NCBI GenBank assembly: GCA_049598495.1
Contig: JBMYNR010000002.1
Location: 1 to 64,000, forward strand
Direction of reading: 5' to 3'
Source of the DNA: Opitutales bacterium
GTDB lineage: Bacteria > Verrucomicrobiota > Verrucomicrobiia > Opitutales > Coraliomargaritaceae
DNA length: 64,000 bases
Each line of letters begins with the position of its first letter. Position 1 is the first letter of the stretch. The position numbers were made by a program, and so were the translations under genes. Of this stretch, positions 23,225 to 51,725 are shown one piece after another. The notes under the pieces are model-generated. The model made no database searches. It saw only the letters and a program-made list of their open reading frames with translations, and was not told where the DNA came from.

Positions 23225-23467
23225 ATGAGAACCACCATTGATATGCCTGATTCTCTAATGAAGCGGGTCAAATTAGCGGCTGCTCGTCGAAACACGACCT
23301 TTCGTGCCCTTGTCGTTCACGCTCTTGAACGCACTCTAGACGACATGCCGGATAGCTTCGAACTGGAGGATGCGTCCACTGGGCACTCCGACGGGAATGA
23401 TCCGGTAAACAGTGAAACGATCAACCAGGCGATCGACCGCCAACGGGAACGCTCTTTCACACAATGA
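23225..23467 (+). CDS. VapB-type antitoxin (RHH)
   Basis: MRTTIDMPDSL, overlapping the downstream PIN gene. Confidence 0.8.
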   Translation: MRTTIDMPDSLMKRVKLAAARRNTTFRALVVHALERTLDDMPDSFELEDASTGHSDGNDPVNSETINQAIDRQRERSFTQ

Positions 23468-23898
23468 TCGCGCTGGACACAAATATACTGATCCACGCGC
23501 ACCGCCGGGATGCAAGTCTACACGCAAGCGCAGCCGAAGCGGTCAAGGAACTCGCCGAATCCATGCGCCCGTGGTCTGTTTGCTATCACAGCCTCATTGA
23601 GTTCTATGGTGTCGCGACACGCTCCCATATCTGGCGCAATGCCTCCACGCCCGAACAAGCCTTTAAACAGATCAAGGCATGGAAAGCCTCGCCAAGCCTT
23701 CGAATCCTTGGTGATTCCGACGTCAGCCTAGAAACCCTTGAATCACTCGCGCTTCAGGCAAGTGTTCAAGGTCCGCTCATACACGACGCCCGGATCGCAG
23801 CCTGCTGCCTGGCAAATGGCGTCACTGAACTGTGGACGGTGGATCGCGATTTCAGCCGTTTTTCGGCGCTCAAGACAAGAAACCCCTTGAACTCATAG
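23464..23898 (+). CDS. vapC: VapC PIN-domain toxin
   Basis: IALDTNILI, IHDARIAA, TVDRDFSRF. Confidence 0.9.
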   Translation: MIALDTNILIHAHRRDASLHASAAEAVKELAESMRPWSVCYHSLIEFYGVATRSHIWRNASTPEQAFKQIKAWKASPSLRILGDSDVSLETLESLALQASVQGPLIHDARIAACCLANGVTELWTVDRDFSRFSALKTRNPLNS

Positions 23899-23925: not shown

Positions 23926-26490
23926 ATGGCTCAAAAGAAACTCACCCCAATGATGCAGCAGTGGCACGAAATCCGTGCCAAACTGGGCGACGATACGCTG
24001 CTCATGTTTCGGCTGGGGGATTTCTACGAGATCTTCCAGCAGGATGCTGAATGGGGAGCCAAACTACTTGGCATTACTCTGACGCACCGCCACGGCATGC
24101 CCATGGCAGGCATCCCCTTTCACGCAGCCGACGGCTACATTCAGAAACTACTGGACCAAGGAGTGAAAATCGCGATCTGCGACCAGGTCGAGACACCCCA
24201 GCCCGGCAAGCTGGTCAAGCGGCAGCTCACTCGTATCATTACTCCGGGCACCCGGCTCGCCGACACCCAGATTGACGCCCAGCGCAACCACTTCCTCCTC
24301 TCGCTCACACTCGGTAAAAAGGCCCTCAACGCCGCCTGGCTCGACCTGACCACAGGCGAGTTTTTCATCGCATCGGAGCAGCAACCGGAAAATCTCTTCG
24401 CCGCCTTTGAAAGCCTGGACCCGCGCGAGATCCTAGTCCCTGAAAATGCGTCGGAGCAATGGAGCCTCCCGCATAGGGAACAACGCTTCCGCGAACTCTA
24501 CACCCACCTTGGCGATGGCCGCGCCATCAGCCCGATTGCCGATTATCATTTCGACGAGGCCGCGGGTGCCCAATCCGTGATGGAAGCTCTCGGCGTAATG
24601 AACCTCGAAGGCTTCGGCATCGACAAAGATCATCCCGCCATGGGGGCCGCAGGTGCCCTCATCCATTACGCCACCGAGACGCTCTGTGCGAAGCCCGAAA
24701 ACCTTCGCAAAATCCGCGAATACTCCAGTGAGCGAACGCTCCTTCTCGACCCCGCGACCCTTCGCAATCTGGAGATCTTCAAATCCGCCGCCAACACTCG
24801 GCAAGGTTCACTGCTCGCAGCCATGGATGGCACCGTGACGCCACCCGGCGCTCGTCTACTGGAGCGCTGGCTCTGCGCACCCGAGCTCGATCTCGCTGAA
24901 ATTCAACGTCGTCAAAACTGCGTGGGCGAATTCGTCAGCGCACCCGGGCTAGCGACTGAACTACAGATCCTCCTAAAGGGTATTCGCGATATCGAGCGCA
25001 TCCTCAGCCGCCTGCAAAACCGCATGCGCAACCCTCGTGAATTGGGCGGTGTGCGCGACACGCTCAACGCGCTGCCCTCCATCGCAAATACTCTCCTGGA
25101 ATTTCCCGACACACCGGTCGCAACCATTGCCGAGCGTATCCATAACTTCGACACACTGACCGAGACACTTGCCCGCGCTTTGGCCGACGAACTACCCGGA
25201 AATATTGCCGATGGCGGCACCATTCGTGACGGCTACGATGAGGCCCTCGACCACACCCGCAGCCTCACCCGCGACAGCCAGAAGTGGCTGACAGAATTTG
25301 AGCAATCCGAACAGGCGCGCACCGGTATCAAGAACCTGCGCATCCGCTACAACGGTGCCTTTGGCTACTTTATCGAAGTGACCAAAAGCAATATCGCCCT
25401 CGTGCCCGAAGAATATGTGCGCAAGCAGACGATGAAAAATGCCGAGCGCTACACCACGGACGTACTGAAGGAGCGTGAGCGAGAGATTCTGCATGCCGAA
25501 GAGAAAGCCATCTCGCAGGAAGACGCGCTTTTTAACGGTCTGATTGAAGCCATTCTTAAGCATGCCGACGCGCTCAAAGAGACCGCGGCCGCGCTGGCCG
25601 AAATCGACGTCTTTGTCGGCTGGAGCACACTCGCTCGCGAGTGGGACTACTGCAAACCACAGCTCGACCACTCGGACAAACTACTGATCGACCAGGGGCG
25701 ACACCCCGTCGTCGAGCAGATGATGCGAAATGAGCGCCTCGGCCTTGCCGGCACCCACGCCTTCGTCCCAAACGACTGCCGCCTCTCTAGCTCTGCCAAA
25801 ACCGAGGACGCACCACAAATCGCGCTGATCACCGGCCCCAATATGGCCGGTAAATCAACCTACATCCGCCAAGTCGCCCTTATGGTACTGATGGCGCAAT
25901 CCGGCGCATGGGTCCCCGCACGAGCCTGCCAACTCGGTGTGGTCGATCGCATTTTCTCCCGTGTCGGCGCCAGCGATGAACTGGCCCGCGGAAACTCCAC
26001 CTTTATGGTCGAGATGAACGAGACGGCCAACATTCTCAACAACGCAACCGAACGCAGTCTCGTCATCCTCGACGAGATTGGGCGGGGCACCTCGACCTAC
26101 GACGGTCTCTCCATCGCCTGGGCCGTCATCGAGCACCTCCACCCTTCCGACGAGCCCGGCGCCCGCACCCTTTTTGCGACCCACTATCACGAGCTGACCC
26201 AGCTGGCCAAGACGCTGGACCGACTGGAGAACTATTCCGTCGCGGTCAAGGAGTGGAACGACGATATCGTCTTCGTGCGCCAAGTCATCAAGGGCGCCGC
26301 CGACCGGTCCTACGGGATTCAAGTCGCCCGCCTCGCCGGGCTGCCGGACACCGTCATCGACCGCGCCAAGACCATCCTCGAACGCCTCGAAGCCGACGAT
26401 TCCAGCCACAACCTCCTGCGCAAGCGTATGCAAAAGGAAAAATCGGGTGGCAGTACTCAGGACGAAGACGACCAGCTGGCTCTTTTCTAA
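23926..26490 (+). CDS. mutS: DNA mismatch repair protein
   Basis: TPMMQQW, FRLGDFYE, TGPNMAGKSTY, DEIGRGTST, ATHYHEL, SYGIQVARLAG. Confidence 0.99.
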   Translation: MAQKKLTPMMQQWHEIRAKLGDDTLLMFRLGDFYEIFQQDAEWGAKLLGITLTHRHGMPMAGIPFHAADGYIQKLLDQGVKIAICDQVETPQPGKLVKRQLTRIITPGTRLADTQIDAQRNHFLLSLTLGKKALNAAWLDLTTGEFFIASEQQPENLFAAFESLDPREILVPENASEQWSLPHREQRFRELYTHLGDGRAISPIADYHFDEAAGAQSVMEALGVMNLEGFGIDKDHPAMGAAGALIHYATETLCAKPENLRKIREYSSERTLLLDPATLRNLEIFKSAANTRQGSLLAAMDGTVTPPGARLLERWLCAPELDLAEIQRRQNCVGEFVSAPGLATELQILLKGIRDIERILSRLQNRMRNPRELGGVRDTLNALPSIANTLLEFPDTPVATIAERIHNFDTLTETLARALADELPGNIADGGTIRDGYDEALDHTRSLTRDSQKWLTEFEQSEQARTGIKNLRIRYNGAFGYFIEVTKSNIALVPEEYVRKQTMKNAERYTTDVLKEREREILHAEEKAISQEDALFNGLIEAILKHADALKETAAALAEIDVFVGWSTLAREWDYCKPQLDHSDKLLIDQGRHPVVEQMMRNERLGLAGTHAFVPNDCRLSSSAKTEDAPQIALITGPNMAGKSTYIRQVALMVLMAQSGAWVPARACQLGVVDRIFSRVGASDELARGNSTFMVEMNETANILNNATERSLVILDEIGRGTSTYDGLSIAWAVIEHLHPSDEPGARTLFATHYHELTQLAKTLDRLENYSVAVKEWNDDIVFVRQVIKGAADRSYGIQVARLAGLPDTVIDRAKTILERLEADDSSHNLLRKRMQKEKSGGSTQDEDDQLALF

Positions 26491-26915
26491 TTATGGCTCT
26501 GCTGACTGCAGCAGATCGCGCAGCACTCCTTGAACCAAAGTCCTGAAAAGAAGTGCGCCGGATGCGGAGCCCAAATACGGTCGAGCAAACACCTGAAGGT
26601 CGTGAGCCATACTGCCGTTGGGCCACCCACTGTTTGCAAACTTTTTAAAGACTCGAAGCCCGTCCGTTTTGCGCCACGAATTGGAAGCTATAGGCTCTAA
26701 ATGACACGGGAATAAGCGATACCCCTACGTAAACCACAAAATGCTTCCTTAATTTGTCCATATCCCCGCAGCTAGAACAGACCCTGCCCGCTAAACCCTC
26801 TGGGTTTCCCTGCCCCTTGAACATTGGGATGCGATATCGTTCATACTGCCAAAATGTATACATTTGTTCACTATTTTATTTGCAAGAGACATAATCTAGA
26901 GCCCAAAGTGGAGCC

Positions 26916-28154
26916 ATGGCCCTCCGCTATCTCTTCATCGACTTTGACAGCTTTTTCGCTTCCGTTGAGCAGCAGTTCCACCCAGAGCTGCGGGGTCGTC
27001 CCGTGGGCATTGTCCCTTCCCTGGGAGTCGAAACCACCTGCTGTATTGCAGCGAGTTATGAAGCTAAAGCTTTCGGCGTTAAGACGGGCACCGGCGTGCG
27101 CGAGGCTCGCGGGCTTTGCCCGGGAATCATCTTCGTAGAGGCGAGCCACTCCAAATATGTCCGGATCCACAAGCAGATCAAAGAGCGAATCCACGAGATC
27201 ATCTATATCGACGCCGTTCTCTCAATCGACGAAATGTATAGCCGTTTGCCTCGTCATTGGCAGCTCCCGGAGGTCGCTCGGGCCAAAGCGATGGAGATCA
27301 AGCGTGCTCTGGCCGAGGCCATCGGCCCGCATATCAGCGCCTCAATCGGCCTCGCCCCCAATCGCTTCCTCGCCAAGCTGGCCAGCAAACTGGAGAAACC
27401 AAATGGCCTGACCCTGATCGACTTTGAGGACCTCCCCGAAAAGCTCTACTCCTTTAAACTGAGCGACATTACCGGGATCGGCCGACGCATTGAGCACCGC
27501 CTCCATACCGCACGTATCATGGACATGGAAGCACTCTGCGCAGCGAGCCGCCAAAAACTCCACCACATCTGGGGCTCGATCGACGGTGATCGCATGTGGT
27601 ATGCCTTACGCGGGATCGAGGTGCCCCCGATCGAAACACATCGCAGCACCATCGGACACTCACATGTGCTGCCACCCCGTCTGCGCAGCTTTCACGGTGC
27701 CCACGCCACCCTCCACCGCATGCTACAAAAAGCCTGCCGGCGGCTGCGTGCCATGCACTACTTTACCGGGCATCTGGCAATCGGCGTGAAGTTTGGCTTC
27801 GAGCTACGCTGGGGCGCGGAGACTCGCTACTTTCCCACTCAGGACAGTGTGCGGCTCGGACAGTTGCTCAACACACTCTGGGCCCGGCATCCAGCCGATG
27901 CCCCCGAGCCCACCAAGGTCAGTGTGACTCTGTCCCGCCTCCAACACAAAGATTGCCACACACCCTCCCTCTTCGCCGAAGACAACCAACCACGCCGCAT
28001 GCAACTCCAGCATGCGATGGACCGCGTCAACAAACGCTTCGGCGGCCGCACGCTCTACTACGCCGACGCCATGGAGGCCCAGCGCTCGAGCGAAGCCGCG
28101 CCCATGCGCATCGCTTTTACGCACATTCCAGACCTCGAACTGGAAGGAGAATAA
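26916..28154 (+). CDS. Y-family (DinB/UmuC-like) translesion DNA polymerase
   Basis: FIDFDSFFASVEQ, IAASYEAK, SIDE, LAKLAS, KPNG. Confidence 0.92.
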   Translation: MALRYLFIDFDSFFASVEQQFHPELRGRPVGIVPSLGVETTCCIAASYEAKAFGVKTGTGVREARGLCPGIIFVEASHSKYVRIHKQIKERIHEIIYIDAVLSIDEMYSRLPRHWQLPEVARAKAMEIKRALAEAIGPHISASIGLAPNRFLAKLASKLEKPNGLTLIDFEDLPEKLYSFKLSDITGIGRRIEHRLHTARIMDMEALCAASRQKLHHIWGSIDGDRMWYALRGIEVPPIETHRSTIGHSHVLPPRLRSFHGAHATLHRMLQKACRRLRAMHYFTGHLAIGVKFGFELRWGAETRYFPTQDSVRLGQLLNTLWARHPADAPEPTKVSVTLSRLQHKDCHTPSLFAEDNQPRRMQLQHAMDRVNKRFGGRTLYYADAMEAQRSSEAAPMRIAFTHIPDLELEGE

Positions 28155-28243
28155 ACCTCGCTCAGGCAGTGCCTAGGCTGAGGGCAAATCGGGGAGTTCG
28201 GCTTCGACCTCTTCCACAACCGCTTCAACCTGAGCAGCCTCGT

Positions 28244-28363
28244 CATCCTCGAGCGCCTCGAAGCGGATGATATTCCTCCCACAATCTCCTGCGCAAGCGC
28301 ATGCGGAAGGATGAGTCCGGCGACAGCACTCGGGACGAAGACGACCTACTGGCCCGATTCTAG
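28244..28363 (+). repeat. Diverged duplicate of the mutS 3' end (26373-26490)
   Basis: Encodes ILERLEADD/SSHNLLRKRMRKDESGDSTRDEDDLLARF* (2-nt insertion) versus MutS ILERLEADDSSHNLLRKRMQKEKSGGSTQDEDDQLALF*. Confidence 0.92.
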
Positions 28364-28423
28364 CGGCGCGCGCCCCACAGACAGTTTGTTAGGGATTCCG
28401 GATTAAACAGCCCGAATCCACCC

Positions 28424-28462: not shown

Positions 28463-28513
28463 ATCGCACACTTTCTTTTGAAATGGCTTTCTGCTATCGA
28501 GTCCCGCTCGCTT

Positions 28514-29275
28514 ATGAATACACGAATTTTAATCGCATTGGCCGTCGCCTTAAGCCTCGTGCCTCTCTCGCTCACCGCTCAGAATCAGGTCTCTGAGACT
28601 CGCAGCATTCTGGAAGAATGGGTGGAAACGCGTCAGATTGTTTCCAAGGAACGCGCAGACTGGGTCATCGAGAAATCGATTCTAGGTGACACTGTCGCGC
28701 TGCTCACGAAGGAACTCGAGCGGCTCAACAAGGCGTTGGAGGATCTAGAAGCCTCCGCAACAGCGGCGGACGAGGATCGGACGAAGCTCGCCGCCGAAAA
28801 AGAGAGGCTGACCGCAGCCTCTGCCGTCGTAGAGGGAAACATTGGCGCGCTCGAGACGCAACTAAAGCGCATCATCAAGTCACTCCCGGAGCCACTTGTT
28901 GAGAAGATTAAGCCCCTCATTCGCCGCCTCCCCGACAACCCGGAGGAGACCGGCCTCTCCCTCGGAGAGCGTGTCCAGAACATCGTCGGCATTCTCAGCC
29001 AAGCCGACAAGTTCAACACCACGATCACCCAAACCAGCGACTCGCGCGAGCTTGAGAGCGGTAAAACTGTCGAGGTGCGCACACTCTACTGGGGTCTCGC
29101 CATGGCTTACTATGTCGATGCCTCCGGAAGCTACGCGGGAATCGGATTCCCCGGAGCCGAGGGATGGGAATGGCCGCAAGTCGAAGGCAAAGGTGCGGAG
29201 ATCAAACGACTGATCGACGTCTACGAAGGAGTCGAGGATATCCAGTTCGTAGAAGTGCCTGCCCAAATCAACTAG
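28514..29275 (+). CDS. DUF3450-like periplasmic coiled-coil protein of TonB system
   Basis: Signal peptide and coiled coil; first gene of exbB-exbB-exbD-tonB-TPR cluster. Confidence 0.75.
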
Positions 29276-34791: not shown

Positions 34792-35220
34792 TCAATCCAG
34801 CGGATGCCGCCACATCAAGGGCGCGTATCTCGCAAAACCACGATCCAGACTGGCCCACTCGTACCCATACTCGATCGCAAGCGCCGCGTGGTAGGCATCC
34901 GGAATTCGATTGCCCGTCGCCTCAAATGTAGAGAGCAATTTAACGAAGATGCTCCAGTGCTCCGAACCGGGAACCGCAATACGCACGGATCCGCGCGCCC
35001 GGAAATCCTCCACAAACTCTATGGCTTCGGCTAGGGGTGTCGGCTCCCGAAACACCCTCGGATGCGTCACAACGCGCAGGAACCCGCTGAGAACCAACTC
35101 TGAAACACCGACCCCGGAGTAGCTTTTCATCTCTGCAGCCAGCCAGTCGCGAATCGCGCCATGATGGGGCGCATCCTCACGATGCGCTTCGACCAAAATG
35201 TTGACGTCCAGTAGCTTCAC
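34792..35220 (-). CDS. vapC: VapC PIN-domain toxin
   Basis: LLDVNILV, FLRVVTHPRVF, PDAYHAALAIE, DRGFARY. Confidence 0.92.
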   Translation of the reverse strand: MKLLDVNILVEAHREDAPHHGAIRDWLAAEMKSYSGVGVSELVLSGFLRVVTHPRVFREPTPLAEAIEFVEDFRARGSVRIAVPGSEHWSIFVKLLSTFEATGNRIPDAYHAALAIEYGYEWASLDRGFARYAPLMWRHPLD

Positions 35221-36425: not shown

Positions 36426-37481
36426 TCAATTCAGCAATGGGCGCTCAACCGGATCAACCTGCAGGTTCCGGAAACTCCGCATCCCGCCCCATTCGGCGCA
36501 GCGCATAGGGTAGGCATTACACTTCCGAACTAGGCCGTATCGGCTCTTCCACTGCCCACCCAAATCCGACAGAAAATGTTCTGAACCGATCGCTGTGCCC
36601 GCAGTGAAATAACGGACTCGAGTGCGTAGCACATCCGACAGCGGCAGCTTTCCCCCATCCGCGATGATTCTGTCCGCACGTCCCGGATCAACTCGGCCAC
36701 GGTCTTTGACTAAGGTCCCCTTACTCGTCATGCCTTTGCCGTAGAGAATCACCCGATAATCCGGCAATAGTTCGCTCCACATCGCACTACCGCAAAATAC
36801 ACCCTGGTAGCCCATGCGAGCTGCCCGACGCCCCCGCATAGCTGCGCCATAGCTGCTGAACGCATAATCCTCAGGGTCATCGACTAATCCTGCGCGCACC
36901 GGGTTCAGATCGATGTAGGCTGCAACGGTGGTCAGCGCTTCCCTGGAAGACTCCACCACCACACTCGTGAAGCGTTTCGCCCAAATCGTTCCTTTATTCT
37001 GGTGTCGATGATTGTACCAAATCCCGAACCGCTGTTTCAATTCCCGCATAAAGACTGAAAGGTCGTGCATCCGCGCAAGGATTCGCACCCGCAAGGCCTG
37101 CCCCTCCTCCTCATTCCGTTCCAGCAGTCCGGCCAAGACATCGGGAGCCGCCGAAGATGCCGGACAGTGCTTCGAATCATAAAGTAAGCGGTAGCGGCGC
37201 AGTAGCTCCGCATCGGTGATCGCCACATCCTCCGGCACCGCCACCAGCAGGTGGAAGTGGTTTCCCATCACGCAATAGGCCAGCACATCCACTCCACAGA
37301 AACCCGCCTGCCTACGCAACATTTCGACGAACACCCGTTTTGCTTCATCGTCGAAAAGATACTGCCCGCACGAAGTCCGGCTCATCACATGATAACCCCC
37401 CCGCTGCCCCTCGACCAACAAACGCCCCCGATACCCCGCACGCCTCAGATAACTCGCTTCCATAACTTCACACTCACCCAT
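36426..37481 (-). CDS. Y1 HUH transposase (RAYT/IS200-like)
   Basis: YHVMSR, AYCVMGNHFHLLV (HUH), YIDLNPVRAGLV...YAFSSY. Confidence 0.92.
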   Translation of the reverse strand: MGECEVMEASYLRRAGYRGRLLVEGQRGGYHVMSRTSCGQYLFDDEAKRVFVEMLRRQAGFCGVDVLAYCVMGNHFHLLVAVPEDVAITDAELLRRYRLLYDSKHCPASSAAPDVLAGLLERNEEEGQALRVRILARMHDLSVFMRELKQRFGIWYNHRHQNKGTIWAKRFTSVVVESSREALTTVAAYIDLNPVRAGLVDDPEDYAFSSYGAAMRGRRAARMGYQGVFCGSAMWSELLPDYRVILYGKGMTSKGTLVKDRGRVDPGRADRIIADGGKLPLSDVLRTRVRYFTAGTAIGSEHFLSDLGGQWKSRYGLVRKCNAYPMRCAEWGGMRSFRNLQVDPVERPLLN

Positions 37482-45991: not shown

Positions 45992-47179
45992 CTATTGCTG
46001 GTTACTGTCTTCAAGCGATTCAACGACCTCCTCAACCGCGACATCGTCCACTTCTTCCACCACAGTGGTCGTCTGGTCCGCTTCCGTGATGGCTTGATTT
46101 ACAGGCTTGATCAGGAGCGGAAGGAAAAGCGCCAGCAAAACCGCAATCGCAGAACCGAAGAATGCTTTGCCTGCATCTCGGAAGATGAGGTTTGAAACTT
46201 TCTTCTTGGTGCGGTGGCGCAAGCGAAGCGCGATACCGACTTCACGACCCGCAAGAAGGCCGAGGAACACCCACGTTGTACTCATTGGCATCTTTTCGGG
46301 CCAAGGCACTTCCATGTTCATGGCCACAAAGAGCTTTGGAATGTAGTCTACCTTGAAAAAGAGCAGAACGAGACCGTAGAGCAAATCGATGAATGTCGCG
46401 GACCTGACATCCAGCGTGTTGGTCTTATTCGTGACCACATGTTGAATCTTGCCTCCCTTCTCCTTGAATAGGTAGCCCTGCAGGAGAACCATACCGCCGA
46501 GCGAGAGCGCTAGCCCCCACCATGAGAGCTCGCGGGGAAGATAGACAAAGATGTTGGCCAGATCTTGGACCAGCCACATGGACCAGAGGAAGCCAGTGGA
46601 AAGCCACTGGAAGACCATCCAGTTGGGGTGAAGGGCATTGGCCCCTTCTTCATCTTCCTCGAGCTCTTTCGAAACCTTGCGCTCGAGGATGTAGATCACC
46701 GCGAAAAATAGAATCAACCCGAGCAGAAAGGCGATAGCGTAGCCGACCAGAGACTTCTCCATCATCGACTTGAAAAGGTCCACGGCTGCTTTTGGCGTGC
46801 TCCCCATCTGCGCGGCGACAAGGCCCTTGAATGCGGTCAACACGAGCAGCGACGTACTCACGGGGATGCCCATCCGGGTCAGAATGACTAAGCAGAGAGG
46901 CGGCAGAACGAAAAGCCAAGTAATGAGGCCCCCGATATCGTGGGGGTGCGGAATGTTTTTGCCGTCGGCAGCCAAGCGGCCGAAAGCGGGGTCACCACCG
47001 TTGGCGATCCAACCCCAAGTCACCGTCACCACCATGATACCGGAGATCCAGATCCAGAGCACCCACCACGGCCGCTTGGCGTTGGAGGCGAGGAATGTCC
47101 CCAAGGTCTGGATCGAGTCGTTCGCAACGATGGCGTAAGCAGCCATCGCAAATCCGAGGATCATAAAAATTTCGGCCAT
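45992..47179 (-). CDS. PiT-related putative phosphate permease
   Basis: About 10 TM segments; ANDSIQTLGTF, GIPVSTS, QDLANI and MPMSTTW echo PiT GANDxAN/PVSxT repeats; divergent from pstS. Confidence 0.65.
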   Translation of the reverse strand: MAEIFMILGFAMAAYAIVANDSIQTLGTFLASNAKRPWWVLWIWISGIMVVTVTWGWIANGGDPAFGRLAADGKNIPHPHDIGGLITWLFVLPPLCLVILTRMGIPVSTSLLVLTAFKGLVAAQMGSTPKAAVDLFKSMMEKSLVGYAIAFLLGLILFFAVIYILERKVSKELEEDEEGANALHPNWMVFQWLSTGFLWSMWLVQDLANIFVYLPRELSWWGLALSLGGMVLLQGYLFKEKGGKIQHVVTNKTNTLDVRSATFIDLLYGLVLLFFKVDYIPKLFVAMNMEVPWPEKMPMSTTWVFLGLLAGREVGIALRLRHRTKKKVSNLIFRDAGKAFFGSAIAVLLALFLPLLIKPVNQAITEADQTTTVVEEVDDVAVEEVVESLEDSNQQ

Positions 47180-47243: not shown

Positions 47244-47354
47244 GTCACGCAATTGTTACAAGCGGCGGGCAGTTTCGATTTTTCAAAAACGGAATATTTT
47301 GTTTTCATATGAGGTTCGGGCATGCAAATCCTTTTTCGCCATACAATTGTTACA
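47244..47354 (+). promoter_or_regulatory. Pho-box-like sites at the pstS promoter
   Basis: GTCACG-CAATT-GTTACA (47244-47260) and GCCATA-CAATT-GTTACA (47338-47354). Confidence 0.7.
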
Positions 47355-48155
47355 TTTTTATCCAGCACCTTTCTGGCTGGGGCAGTCTGTGCAGGTACGG
47401 TGATCATTAAGGGCTCGGACACATTGGGGGCAAAACTGATCCCTCAGCTTGTCGAAACATACCGCGCCACTCTGGATGACGGTGGCGAAAACCTCGCTTT
47501 TGAGATCGCGGCCGAGGGCTCGACGACCGGCGTAGCTGCGATTCTTGAAGGCAGTGCCGACATTGGGATGCTTTCTCGAGGATTGGACGCTAAAGAGTAC
47601 CGCCGTGCAGAAATTCGCGGGCTCGAGCTCGAGATTCTTAAAGTGGCACGGGACGGTCTTGCAGTGATCGTCAACGAGAATAATCCACTGACGGAACTAA
47701 GCTCCCAAGAAGTGGAAGCCATATTCACAGGCGACATTCAAAACTGGGCCGCGCTCTCCTTGTTCGCAGGCGACATATCGATTTATACCCGCAGCACTGC
47801 CTCCGGAAGCTTTGGCGCATTCCAAAGCCTAGCGCTCAACAATCGTGACTACAGCTTGAACTCTCAAAAGATGACGGGTAATGAACAGATTGCGTCAGAG
47901 GTCGCTTCGAACCCTTACGGCATCGGTTATGTCGGCCTGGCCTACACGAGAACTCCCGGAGTGAAAGCACTCCCCATTGATGGACTGATGCCTGACGAGT
48001 CCGGATATACTTACGAGCGAGAGCTGTATTTCCTCATCGACAAGAATCGCGAAATGAGCGCGGAGGCTCGAGACTTTATAGACTTTTGCCTAAACGCCCG
48101 CGGCCAGCGGATCGTTACACGCATCAACTTTCTGCCATCGGCAAACACACAATAG
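47322..48155 (+). CDS. pstS: Phosphate ABC transporter substrate-binding protein
   Basis: IKGSDT, EGSTTG, DIGMLSR, YTRSTASGS, IGYVGL. Confidence 0.92.
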   Translation: MQILFRHTIVTFLSSTFLAGAVCAGTVIIKGSDTLGAKLIPQLVETYRATLDDGGENLAFEIAAEGSTTGVAAILEGSADIGMLSRGLDAKEYRRAEIRGLELEILKVARDGLAVIVNENNPLTELSSQEVEAIFTGDIQNWAALSLFAGDISIYTRSTASGSFGAFQSLALNNRDYSLNSQKMTGNEQIASEVASNPYGIGYVGLAYTRTPGVKALPIDGLMPDESGYTYERELYFLIDKNREMSAEARDFIDFCLNARGQRIVTRINFLPSANTQ

Positions 48156-48157
48156 CG

Positions 48158-49696
48158 ATGGAGCCGAGCCAAGATCATAGCCATTCCGAATCGGGGATGG
48201 CCCTAAAAGCTGGAATGTCCACGTCGGCAAACCGCCGCTTTGAGAAAACGTTCAAGAACCTGTTTCAATCGACCGCTTTTGTCACAATCTGTATACTTGG
48301 TCTGATCATCCTCTTTTTGCTTAAAGAGGGCCTTGGATTTGTTGGCAGCTATACCGAGAGTCTCAGAGAATATCGGAGCTCCGGCTTGGAGTATGTCGAC
48401 CTCATGGAGAACAAATATCGCGACTCCATCGAACTACAGAACGAACTAACCCAAATCCGAGCGGACTGGATCAAACGCTTACAGGACGATCGACAAGACC
48501 AACGGGTCATTCAGCAAACGATTGGAGACTCCGAGTTCAGTGCGCTATTTGCCGAGCTTCGGGAAACGACACTTCCACTCGGGGCCTATCTGAAGGAAAA
48601 GCGCGACTATGTCATGCACGCCAGAAACGATTCGGAGGAGGCCATTTTCGATCAAGCCTACCTTGAGGGCCTTCAATCCGACCGTGAGCGCTACGACAGT
48701 ATCATTTCCCAACTCGCGGAGGCACAGATCGCGTTGACCCGCGAGCTCGCAGTATTTCAGACAGGCCAGAAAGGCCTAGACCGAAGGCTGCAGAAGGCGG
48801 AGGCAACGGCTCTTGCTTACAGCGGAGGAGTTATTCATCACCTTGAGAGCCTTAGCGCGTGGAAAGCGGACGCCTCGATTTCAGAGTTCCGTGCGCTCAT
48901 TTCGTTTTTTACCGGCCGGCATTGGATCACTGCGAGTGACCAACAAGATTGGTATGGCCTTCTTCCGCTTCTAACGGGTTCTATCCTCATAAGCGCGATC
49001 GCGATGACGATTGCGATCCCGACCGCAATTGGTGCCGCAATCTACATCAACCAGTTCGCCAGTAAGGCCGAACGCACTCTAGTAAAGCCCTACATCGAAT
49101 TTATCTCCGCGCTCCCATCTGTGGTCATTGGTTTTTTTGGAGTCATGCTCTTTGGCGAATGGATGCGCACTTTCTCGAACATGGACGCATTTGCCTGGCT
49201 GCCATTTTTCCCGATCGAAGAACGGCTGAACGCTTTCACTGCGGGCGCCCTCCTCGCCCTCATGGCGATACCAACGATCTTCACTCTGACTGAAGACGCA
49301 CTCGAAAACGTTTCAAACTCCCTCAAGGAAGCATCACACGCAGTCGGAGCGACAAAGCTTCAAACCACCTTTCGCATCATTCTCCCAACTGCAATCAGCG
49401 GGGTGATCTCCGCAGTCATGCTCGGATTTGGACGAGTCATTGGCGAAACGATGGTCGTTCTACTTTGTGCGGGCAATCGAATCAAGATTCCCGAAATCGA
49501 TCTGGGAGGCGAGTTTCTCTTCGAGCCCGTGCATAGCATGACGGGTATCATCGCCCAGGAGATGGGAGAAGTTGTTTACGGGGGCCTCCACTATCGAGCC
49601 CTCTTTATGGTCGGGATCGTCCTGTTCCTAGTCTCACTTGCGGTGAACTACGGCGCTCAGGTCTTCGCGAAGAAATTCACCCCAAAGATGAGGTAA
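48158..49696 (+). CDS. pstC: Phosphate ABC permease PstC with long helical insertion
   Basis: KPYIEFISALPSVVIGFFG, LGFGRVIGETMVV. Confidence 0.93.
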   Translation: MEPSQDHSHSESGMALKAGMSTSANRRFEKTFKNLFQSTAFVTICILGLIILFLLKEGLGFVGSYTESLREYRSSGLEYVDLMENKYRDSIELQNELTQIRADWIKRLQDDRQDQRVIQQTIGDSEFSALFAELRETTLPLGAYLKEKRDYVMHARNDSEEAIFDQAYLEGLQSDRERYDSIISQLAEAQIALTRELAVFQTGQKGLDRRLQKAEATALAYSGGVIHHLESLSAWKADASISEFRALISFFTGRHWITASDQQDWYGLLPLLTGSILISAIAMTIAIPTAIGAAIYINQFASKAERTLVKPYIEFISALPSVVIGFFGVMLFGEWMRTFSNMDAFAWLPFFPIEERLNAFTAGALLALMAIPTIFTLTEDALENVSNSLKEASHAVGATKLQTTFRIILPTAISGVISAVMLGFGRVIGETMVVLLCAGNRIKIPEIDLGGEFLFEPVHSMTGIIAQEMGEVVYGGLHYRALFMVGIVLFLVSLAVNYGAQVFAKKFTPKMR

Positions 49697-49704
49697 CTGG
49701 TAAC

Positions 49705-50910
49705 ATGAATGGTCCAAGCTTTGCCTCCGGGGGATCCACCCAGTCTAGGCGCTCGAAAGTAAAACAGCGAGTGATGGTCGTGCTTCTGTTCATCGCCACC
49801 TACTCCATAGTAGCGAGTGTCGGCGTCATCTTCGCCACAATCACTTACCAAGGCTCCAAGGTCGTCTTCCAGCCACAGTACCCATTCATCAACACGGCAT
49901 TTCTTACACAGACTCCCGAAACGCTTCATGTTTACAAACCTCGCGCAACCGAGAACCGCTTACTGGAAAAGCAACGAACTCGGATCCAATACGAGCAACA
50001 ACTCAGCCCCTACGCGGGTAATACACTCGAGCAACAGACAGAGATTCTCGCTCAACTTGAGATCTTAAACGCCGAAATTGAGGAGCTCGAAAAGCAGTCT
50101 CAAATCGGCGAGATACGATTGAGTGAAGCCGAATTTCGTGCGCTCACCGATAAACCCTCACTCGAACAATTTACCTACGAAAACTTCGCCTATAGCGCGG
50201 GCGGGATTGGTCCGGCGATAGCCGGCACGGCAATATTGGTCGTCGGCTCCATCGCGATTGCTCTAACCCTTGGTATTCTCTGCGCGATCTATTTGAATGA
50301 GTACAGCCCACATGGACGCTTTTCTAGATGGGTGCGGCTATCCGTCCTAAACCTAGCCGGCGTACCTTCCATAGTCTTCGGCCTATTTGGATTCGGAATC
50401 TTCGTACTCTTTCTTGGCTGGGGCGTGTCTGTTCTTGCGGGATGGTTCACTCTTTCTGTCATGGTCCTGCCCATCGTGATTGCATCCAGCCAAGAGGCCA
50501 TACGCGCTGTGCCTAACTCATTCAGAGAAGGCTCGCTTGCACTCGGAGCATCTAAATGGACAACGATTCGAACCAATGTCCTGCCCCACGCCCTCCCAGG
50601 TATGTTGACCTCGTCAATCCTGAGTATCGCTCGGGTCGCGGGAGAAACTGCCCCGATCATGTTCACCGCAGCCTTCGCTCTGCGTGACCAGCTGCCGTGG
50701 GAAGGTCTCTCCAAATGGAGCGATTTCTTTTTTCAGGGCGTGATGGCCTTGCCCTATCACATATATGTGGTCAGTTCAAAGATACCCCAAAATGAGTATA
50801 CCCTACGAATGCAATACGGCGCGACATTCGTATTCCTCGTTCTCATCGGCGTTTTTGCATTAACCAGCATCCTACTACGGATCAGAATACGGCAGAAACA
50901 ACGCTGGTAA
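49705..50910 (+). CDS. pstA: Phosphate ABC permease PstA
   Basis: [33 protein letters not shown]. Confidence 0.93.
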
Positions 50911-50930
50911 TCGAAAGACTTTATAGACAG

Positions 50931-51725
50931 ATGGCCCAAGAAAGCTCCAAGACCACTCAAGAAGAGAAACCACCCATCATCCGGGTGAAGAACTTCGACT
51001 TCACATACGGTGAGGCCCAGGCACTCTTCGATATCAGTATGGATGTCCGCGAGAAAGAGGTCACCGCATTCATCGGACCGTCCGGCTGCGGCAAGTCGAC
51101 CTTTCTCCGCTGTTTCAACCGGATGAACGACCTGATCGACATCGCCCGAATCAAGGGAGGCTCAGTTGAGATTAATGGAGTCGATATCTATGAAAAGGAC
51201 GTCGATGTGATCGAACTCCGCAAACACGTGGGGATGGTGTTTCAGAAGTCGAACCCCTTTCCCAAATCGATTTACGAGAACATCGCCTACGGGCTCCGCA
51301 TTCAGGGCATCAAGAAGAAATCCATCCTCGACGATGTTGTGGAAGACTGCCTTCGGGGTGCCGCGCTTTGGGACGAGGTCAAGGACCGCCTCAACGAGAG
51401 CGCCCTCGGGATGTCTGGCGGGCAGCAGCAGCGCCTTTGCATTGCCCGCGCACTCGCCGTCAAGCCGGAGATCCTCCTGATGGACGAGCCCTGCTCCGCG
51501 CTCGATCCGATCGCCACCGCCAAGGTTGAAGAGCTTATCCACGAGTTAAAGAAGGACTACACCATCGTGATCGTGACACACAATATGCAGCAGGCTGCGC
51601 GAGTGTCCGACCGAACCGCGTTCTTCTACCTTGGAAAGCTGATCGAATACGATGTAACGGACACCATTTTCATGAACCCGAATAACGAACAGACTGAGGC
51701 CTACGTTTCAGGCCGCTTCGGCTAA
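50931..51725 (+). CDS. pstB: Phosphate ABC ATPase
   Basis: [47 protein letters not shown]. Confidence 0.98.

Follow-up and report, generated by a model that had tools for sequence, protein, structure and literature searches.

A second mutS tail behind a DinB-like polymerase gene in an Opitutales genome as a probable scar of integrase-independent recombination

The window analyzed here is a 64,000-nt stretch of an Opitutales bacterium (Verrucomicrobiota, Coraliomargaritaceae; GenBank assembly GCA_049598495.1, contig JBMYNR010000002.1, positions 1 to 64,000), in which the mismatch repair gene mutS is followed by a gene for a Y-family DNA polymerase and the 3' end of mutS is found a second time behind the polymerase gene. 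Judged from sequence comparisons, this second mutS tail is probably the scar of integrase-independent host recombination, i.e., of a microhomology-mediated duplication or re-insertion of a 1.87-kb segment carrying the mutS tail and the polymerase gene, together with a deletion. A first-pass annotation had interpreted the same layout as a mobile islet, in which an integrative element would have inserted in the mutS C-terminus and brought the polymerase along.

The intact mutS gene (23926-26490, plus strand) encodes a protein of 854 amino acids (aa) with the Pfam domains MutS_I-V, which scored 983 bits against the NCBIfam MutS equivalog (cut-off 480). Its last 118 nt (26373-26490, 39 codons), referred to as the resident tail or t1, recur on the same strand at 28244-28363 as a pseudogene fragment, referred to as the orphan tail or t2. 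Both a MAFFT alignment and a gap-free repeat search showed that 26373-26489 and 28244-28362 are ~80% identical, with one 2-nt insertion in the orphan copy near 28270. When this insertion was removed for comparison, the orphan copy read ILERLEADDSSHNLLRKRMRKDESGDSTRDEDDLLARF up to its stop codon, while the end of mutS reads ...QKEKSGGSTQDEDDQLALF before the stop codon. The resident tail ends with DEDDQLALF, and QLALF, which we take to be a beta-clamp-binding motif, is changed to LLARF in the orphan tail. In the whole 1.75-Mb assembly, the orphan copy was the sole other match to the mutS tail (E 2e-23), and by tblastn the genome contains one mutS and one such polymerase gene.

Contigs from sequencing runs of three other studies also covered this layout. 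The X4 contig spans 26362-29500 with 3 differences, the X6 contig spans 26458-29500 with 13 differences and 1 gap, and the X7 contig spans 27915-28591 with 0 differences; all runs containing the locus were seawater, marine or aquatic metagenomes. Because the polymerase gene, the remnant described below, the orphan tail and the start of the following DUF3450 gene are bridged by these contigs with 0-13 differences, the layout is natural and not a mis-assembly. Apart from the fact that the metagenome-assembled genome consists of 73 contigs, nothing speaks for mis-assembly or, given the E value within the genome, for chance similarity, and the probability of such an artifact is practically negligible. 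The diverged and frameshifted mutS 3' end of the first-pass annotation was thereby confirmed. Another contig of the X7 run, covering 25828-26693, has 39 differences from mutS over the 317 letters up to 26144 and only 16 over the 537 letters from 26157 to 26693; between these two stretches, 12 letters are replaced by 45. This hints at a mosaic mutS allele in the population of this species.

The gene between the two tails (26916-28154, plus strand, 412 aa) encodes a polymerase with the domains IMS (PF00817, 3e-34), IMS_C (PF11799, 5e-9) and HhH. The motifs DFDSFFASVEQ and SIDEMY correspond to DMDAFFASIEQ and SIDEAY in an alignment with the solved DNA polymerase IV 7yll_A (E 1e-33), and the predicted enzyme looks catalytically intact. 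The best NCBIfam Pol IV score was 191.5 bits, under the cut-off of 381; the protein is a Y-family, DinB-like polymerase and not a curated Pol IV equivalog. As annotated in the first pass, it is the sole intact gene between the copies, with no other open reading frame (ORF) of at least 110 aa there, and no integrase was found between the copies (26491-28243).

For comparison, related genomes of the family were examined, in which G000 denotes the genome studied here, the other G-numbers denote its relatives and L-numbers denote loci examined. The polymerase is 82-86% identical to its syntenic orthologs in the genus; G011 is nearest, likewise for mutS. In 9 of the 13 relatives with both genes found, mutS and the polymerase gene were co-located on the same contig and strand, 0.24-6.5 kb apart (G001, G008, G010, G011, G013, G015, G017, and G021 and G022, which represent two other genera), and they were apart in the remaining four (G004, G005, G007 and G018). 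When 54 contigs were picked by the polymerase alone, a mutS 3' end was present 0.24-2.9 kb upstream in 20, while many of the others have too little upstream sequence to judge. A mutS gene directly followed by the DUF3450 gene, which the mobile-islet interpretation predicted for relatives, was observed at none of the 42 loci with a mutS 3' end. Because mutS-polymerase synteny is conserved in this family of marine Verrucomicrobia across several genera, the polymerase gene is, by gene order, an ancestral neighbor of mutS and not island cargo.

The polymerase gene is also situated behind mutS in G096, which belongs to a further genus, and there mutS is decayed. At this locus (L041; contig C29, 447-3004) mutS occupies its ancestral place before the polymerase gene, but is spread over three reading frames with two in-frame stops, whereas an intact 857-aa mutS is present on another contig (L040; C27, 428-3001). 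The presence of two genes could mean that mutS was lost and replaced, or that the assembly (82% complete, with 2% contamination) is mixed.

An operator-like box, GTATAC-ATTT-GTTCAC, is located at 26856-26871 before the polymerase gene. At a distance of 45-100 nt from the start codon, each of the 14 upstream regions compared carries such a box, which has the form GTGAAC-N4-TTATAC in either orientation and is inverted in place in G000, G007 and G005. It corresponds to the type GTGAAC-N4-GTTCAC with one good and one weak half-site. A fuller palindrome, AATAGTAAAC-AAGT-GTTCACTATT, was observed 120 nt upstream of an ORF for an SSB-like protein (G000 contig C5, near 41836). The candidate box may be the SOS (LexA) box of the family.

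In G010, G011, G015 and many metagenome contigs, the polymerase gene is followed on the opposite strand by a gene for a ~400-aa membrane protein without Pfam family, which is named memX here. Local alignments to the C-termini of these proteins identified a memX remnant, comprising the last ~29 codons and the stop codon, at 28173-28262 on the minus strand of the window. It reads EALEDDEAAQVEAVVEEVEAELPDLPSA before the stop, compared with, e.g., ARLDAEAAAQVETVE...LPAELPAE before the stop in relatives. The tail of a lost minus-strand gene noticed in the first pass was thus real and could be extended. An intact but diverged memX copy of 395 aa is present at 45992-47179 (minus strand), 18 kb away, between a TonB-dependent receptor gene and pstSCAB (47322-51725). 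Because the best local alignments of the remnant scored 22 with the memX C-termini of relatives and 14 with the memX of its own genome, the intact copy is not a recent twin of the remnant. In relatives, no memX was found at the TonB-dependent receptor/pstSCAB site, and memX adjoins the polymerase gene instead. Linkage of memX to a second PstS-like gene was seen in G011, and a phosphate-related role of the memX family is suggested. An origin of 28207-28252 from the Walker-B region of mutS (18/19 match; E 0.003 to four relatives) was also considered, and was dropped for the memX remnant because position, strand, stop codon and protein similarity fit the latter.

The memX remnant and the orphan tail overlap in the 9-nt sequence CATCCTCGA (28244-28252), which corresponds to mutS position -118, counted from the stop-codon end, and to memX antisense, inside a patch of 13/16 similarity. 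Here, the antisense of the memX 'ERLE' codons resembles the mutS 'ILERLE' codons by chance. The left junction is an illegitimate microhomology join, which connects a point ~90 nt inside the memX 3' end to mutS position -118 and duplicates a 1.87-kb segment consisting of mutS tail, spacer, polymerase gene and memX 3' end. A direct-orientation join that leads from a downstream point (memX) back to an upstream one (mutS -118) is characteristic of a tandem duplication of the 1.87 kb or of their excision as a circle.

The relationship of the two tails agrees with an event of this kind. In a FastTree phylogeny, t1 and t2 were sisters (support 0.83) with branch lengths of 0.089 and 0.180, respectively. 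Among 45 tails, the orphan tail shares 80.5% identity with t1 and no more than 78.8% with any other, and five states common to t1 and t2 each occur in at most 6 of the 43 other unique tails. Their sisterhood indicates a duplication event within this lineage. The tails are each other's closest relatives, and the branch of t2 is twice as long as that of t1. The orphan tail has apparently decayed since the event.

The simplest explanation common to the cases in the family is host recombination with the conserved gene end as a homology handle: a fragment with a gene end and neighboring DNA would be closed or joined by microhomology, and one homologous crossover in the conserved end would then integrate it. 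Such a crossover would duplicate exactly the homology carried, and the duplicated homology would end at the stop codon because the genomes stop being alike there. In the window, the join could have been formed via tandem duplication, or a circularized copy could have been re-integrated by a single crossover in the tail. Because the same join duplicated native DNA, deletion of a second spacer-polymerase-memX copy would also be required, and further genes would have been lost with it. This deletion could have occurred after a tandem duplication, or beforehand, in which case a polymerase-less ancestor would have regained the segment from a conspecific. Because of the exact stop-codon boundary, we lean slightly towards the second order. 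The orphan tail would subsequently have decayed. Short repeats may be the survivors of such events, long ones recombining the insert out again.

Homology-facilitated illegitimate recombination (HFIR), or single crossover of circularized fragments, provides an experimental parallel. In E. coli, integration of circularized fragments by single crossover led to duplication of 109-950 bp of the homologous anchor, shown by polymerase chain reaction in 56 of 60 clones, and the microhomology at HFIR joints measures 3-10 bp (PMC3240628). In the window, the duplicated anchor end of 118 nt lies inside the 109-950 bp range and the joint microhomology CATCCTCGA has 9 nt. The likeness to the Acinetobacter, pneumococcus and E. 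coli systems (PMC3240628) extends to one homologous anchor, a microhomology joint of 3-10 bp, no recombinase and an anchor duplication of ~100-950 bp. Unlike in those experiments, the window case is read from natural genomes, its 'insert' is a native neighbor and an extra deletion is needed.

A one-step alternative would be the deletion of memX and the genes downstream of it by template-switch repair resembling microhomology-mediated break-induced replication, with the orphan tail as 'filler' DNA. After priming on the mutS tail, which lies 1.87 kb upstream, a broken end would have been extended by 118 nt before it switched to the upstream region of the DUF3450 gene. The microhomology at the left junction and the sisterhood of the tails are consistent with this, as is the absence of memX from its native place, where it would be dispensable given the diverged intact copy elsewhere and where it was lost independently in G013-type relatives. 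However, a second switch exactly at the stop codon would be chance, the 59 nt behind the copy are without any match, and no bacterial precedent was found in the literature searched. Template switching is therefore considered an improbable explanation.

A search for mutS tails in 101 family genomes, followed by locus inspection, revealed that orphan tails are not confined to the window. In G010 (also L044-46 and L082), the order is mutS, a DUF4143/AAA_14 ATPase gene (PADLOC PDC-S01), an orphan tail, a DUF2490 gene and the polymerase gene. G005 and G018 share one junction, with an orphan tail followed by an Rrf2 gene; between mutS and this tail, G005 contains a DUF3800 gene and G018 an Mrr-nSTAND3 / PDC-S73 gene. 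In G095, a 700-aa DUF4962-like gene is inserted between mutS and the orphan tail, which is followed by a DUF4143 ATPase gene. Finally, one 4-kb contig of G054 carries a gene for a HIRAN protein (PDC-M03B), an orphan tail, an Xre/RES pair and a shorter orphan tail; this two-tail array is located at 1202-3110 of L036 (C58), with the Xre/RES toxin-antitoxin pair between the tails.

Including the window, six independent orphan-tail junctions were identified in the family, and all copies end at the stop codon. Counted from that end, the junctions start at ~-118 (the window), -116, -114, -106, -105 and -66, so that five of the six start in one 14-nt stretch with two CCTCGAA repeats. Beyond 6-9 nt, the flanks at the junctions showed no conserved arms, and those of G000 and G010 belong to ordinary genes. 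The G010 junction coincides with the cargo gene's natural 3' end (FLEQL before the stop, vs. YLELL in G095), with TCCTCGAAC common to this end and mutS. Codon differences between orphan and resident tail were 12 synonymous and 4 non-synonymous in G010, and 8 and 1 in G095. Because the differences are mostly synonymous and the paired tails are not sisters, both tails would once have been real mutS ends of different lineages, and the tail would have been imported with the cargo. The flanks of G018 and G005 are 98% identical, and in G018 the segment from the mutS tail to inside the DUF3800 gene is replaced; mutS itself is mosaic among G005, G018 and G007. These comparisons support the mutS tail as a recurrent insertion point in the family, with cargo that by PADLOC matches includes phage-defense-candidate genes. 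The same kind of event as in the window, at the same spot, trapped foreign genes in these relatives.

Two related observations were made at other loci. At L028 (G018:C99, 1597-4480) and L050 (4001-6878), it is the 3' end of the polymerase gene that occurs a second time, 1.4-1.5 kb downstream, and the bracketed gene of 409-411 aa has no Pfam or PADLOC match. At L038 (G074:C28, 510-587), a lone 26-codon mutS fragment (aa 800-825) spans the junction hot spot; it adjoins a gene for a 1411-aa RCC1/FG-GAP repeat protein, away from the mutS of G074.

The displaced tails in G010, G005/G018, G095 and G054 uphold one half of the earlier interpretation, namely insertion at the mutS C-terminus, while its other half, that an element brought the polymerase, was not sustained. 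A relic of a site-specific integrative element that carried the polymerase and lost its integrase would be in line with the direct repeats of the target 3' end (118 nt, 80%) bracketing a single gene, with homology that stops exactly at the stop codon, as with elements carrying a replacement gene end, and with the cargo variants of relatives at the same site. However, the polymerase is a syntenic ortholog beside mutS across genera, what was taken for the element end is a piece of memX, the native neighbor, the two tails are sisters, and no empty mutS-DUF3450 site exists among the 42 loci. Moreover, searches for an integrase domain were negative, both between the two tails and in the cargo of the five distinct tail-bracketed loci examined in relatives. 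The larger integrase-bearing elements proposed for this site were likewise not encountered, since no recombinase domain was detected in the cargo ORFs of G010, G005, G018, G095, G054, L050 and L028. The element-relic interpretation is largely refuted by synteny already, and it is very unlikely overall. A simple local duplication would, according to the first-pass annotation, be indicated by relatives sharing the mutS-polymerase adjacency with neither duplications nor island variants; the adjacency is indeed common to relatives, but duplications and cargo variants exist as well.

The clustering of the junctions raises the possibility of a dedicated cassette-capture system, in which the mutS tail would be the docking site of a trans-acting recombinase recognizing CCTCGAA, and the copy in the window an old product. 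The fact that five of six junctions start between -118 and -105, each at either of the CCTCGAA repeats, would fit such a system, as would cargo consisting of single genes or gene pairs, several of which match the phage-defense candidates PDC-S01, PDC-S73 and PDC-M03B, and the array of two orphan tails in G054. It is opposed by the lack of conserved arms beyond 6-9 nt, by shared bases in G000 and G010 that belong to ordinary genes, by the same kind of tail duplication at the 3' end of the polymerase gene (G018, L050), and by the fact that no candidate recombinase was linked. A system of this type is thus quite unlikely. As a broader idea, the last ~105-118 nt of mutS might be a dedicated docking site at which integrase-less single-gene cassettes, many of them phage-defense candidates, are captured serially, each leaving an orphan tail, with the CCTCGAA repeats as preferred crossover; capture would perhaps be favored in mismatch-repair-deficient, hyper-recombinogenic episodes that end by re-import of a working mutS end, and the copy in the window would again be an old product. 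This idea is regarded as doubtful.

Several points weigh against the preferred explanation, an integrase-independent duplication or re-insertion with deletion. It needs at least two events, which could have occurred in either order, and if a purely local duplication had been followed by deletion, a homology that stops on its right side exactly at the stop codon would be a roughly 1% coincidence. The polymerase-less mutS-DUF3450 adjacency was found at 0 of 42 loci, and no intermediate was seen among the available relatives, the nearest of which has ~86% polymerase identity (a metagenome scan found none >85%). The five of six junctions within 14 nt containing CCTCGAA repeats are tighter than random microhomology and hint at a more site-specific process. 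The codon differences between t1 and t2, 11 synonymous and 7 non-synonymous, fit decay, yet they fit two conspecific alleles too, so that this count favors none of the models. When identity to G011, G007, G018, G010 and G013 was profiled along the window, no clear break appeared at the orphan tail; G011 is first the closest and falls to 69-71% in the DUF3450-ExbB region, and the differences are small. Contigs over the region contained no joint of an excised circle or of a tail-to-tail deletion, which is uninformative either way because rare variants drop from contigs.

Compared with known systems, the layout shares features with e14 and phage 21 in icd of E. coli and with SpyCI at mutL of Streptococcus pyogenes, which are integrase-encoding elements with an element-specific replacement end. 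In these cases too, there are two copies of the target 3' end, one belonging to the functional gene and a dead one lying downstream. Unlike these elements, the mutS-polymerase locus has neither an integrase nor an element-specific arm, and the bracketed gene is ancestral. In enteric bacteria, mosaic mutS alleles and a polymorphic mutS-rpoS region were reportedly described by Denamur and colleagues in 2000 (Cell). The likeness is that recombination and changes in gene content concentrate at mutS and its 3' flank, as in the G005/G018/G007 mosaic and the two mutS genes of G096, and the difference is that the enteric bacteria belong to another phylum; to our knowledge, orphan tail copies are not the reported signature at the enteric region. 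A further parallel is provided by the sites cDHS1 and cDHS2 (core defense hotspots) of P. aeruginosa, which are fixed sites by conserved genes that hold varied defense systems, often without a mobile-element gene, and for which exchange by recombination in the conserved flanks was suggested (PMC10250203, excerpted text). The family's mutS site resembles them as a fixed chromosomal site beside conserved genes with varied defense systems. It differs in that their flanks are not mutS, a word that occurs 0 times in the excerpted text, which also describes no tail duplications (PMC10250203).

The remaining parts of the locus are as follows. The 425-nt spacer between mutS and the polymerase gene (26491-26915) had no blastn match in the whole genome or any locus compared, and a DUF2490 remnant sought in it was not found. 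A 323-nt spacer separates the polymerase gene from the DUF3450 gene (28478-29275, plus strand), the first gene of a DUF3450-ExbB-ExbB-ExbD-TonB cluster. Within it, the 59 nt behind the orphan tail (28364-28422) also matched nothing in the whole genome or any locus compared, and homology to the DUF3450 upstream region of relatives restarts at ~28423. Directly upstream of mutS, a PIN-domain gene at 23225-23898 is preceded by a small ORF, and the two are possibly a VapBC-type pair. A second PIN gene is located at 34792-35220 on the minus strand, and a minus-strand ORF of 351 aa at 36426-37481 has an IS200-like Y1 transposase domain (PF01797, 2.7e-11).

A mobile islet that links mismatch repair to a mutagenic polymerase is thus the wrong story for this locus, as the linkage is old and reflects vertical synteny. 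An orphan gene tail left by recombination is an already known kind of structure, to which the mutS case adds an instance. For annotating genomic islands, it calls for caution, since duplication of a target end alone does not imply an integrase-borne element. Within the family, the mutS loci would be natural examples of the 3' end of a conserved repair gene serving as a homology handle by which host recombination alone inserts foreign DNA, and the orphan tails would be datable scars of such insertions.

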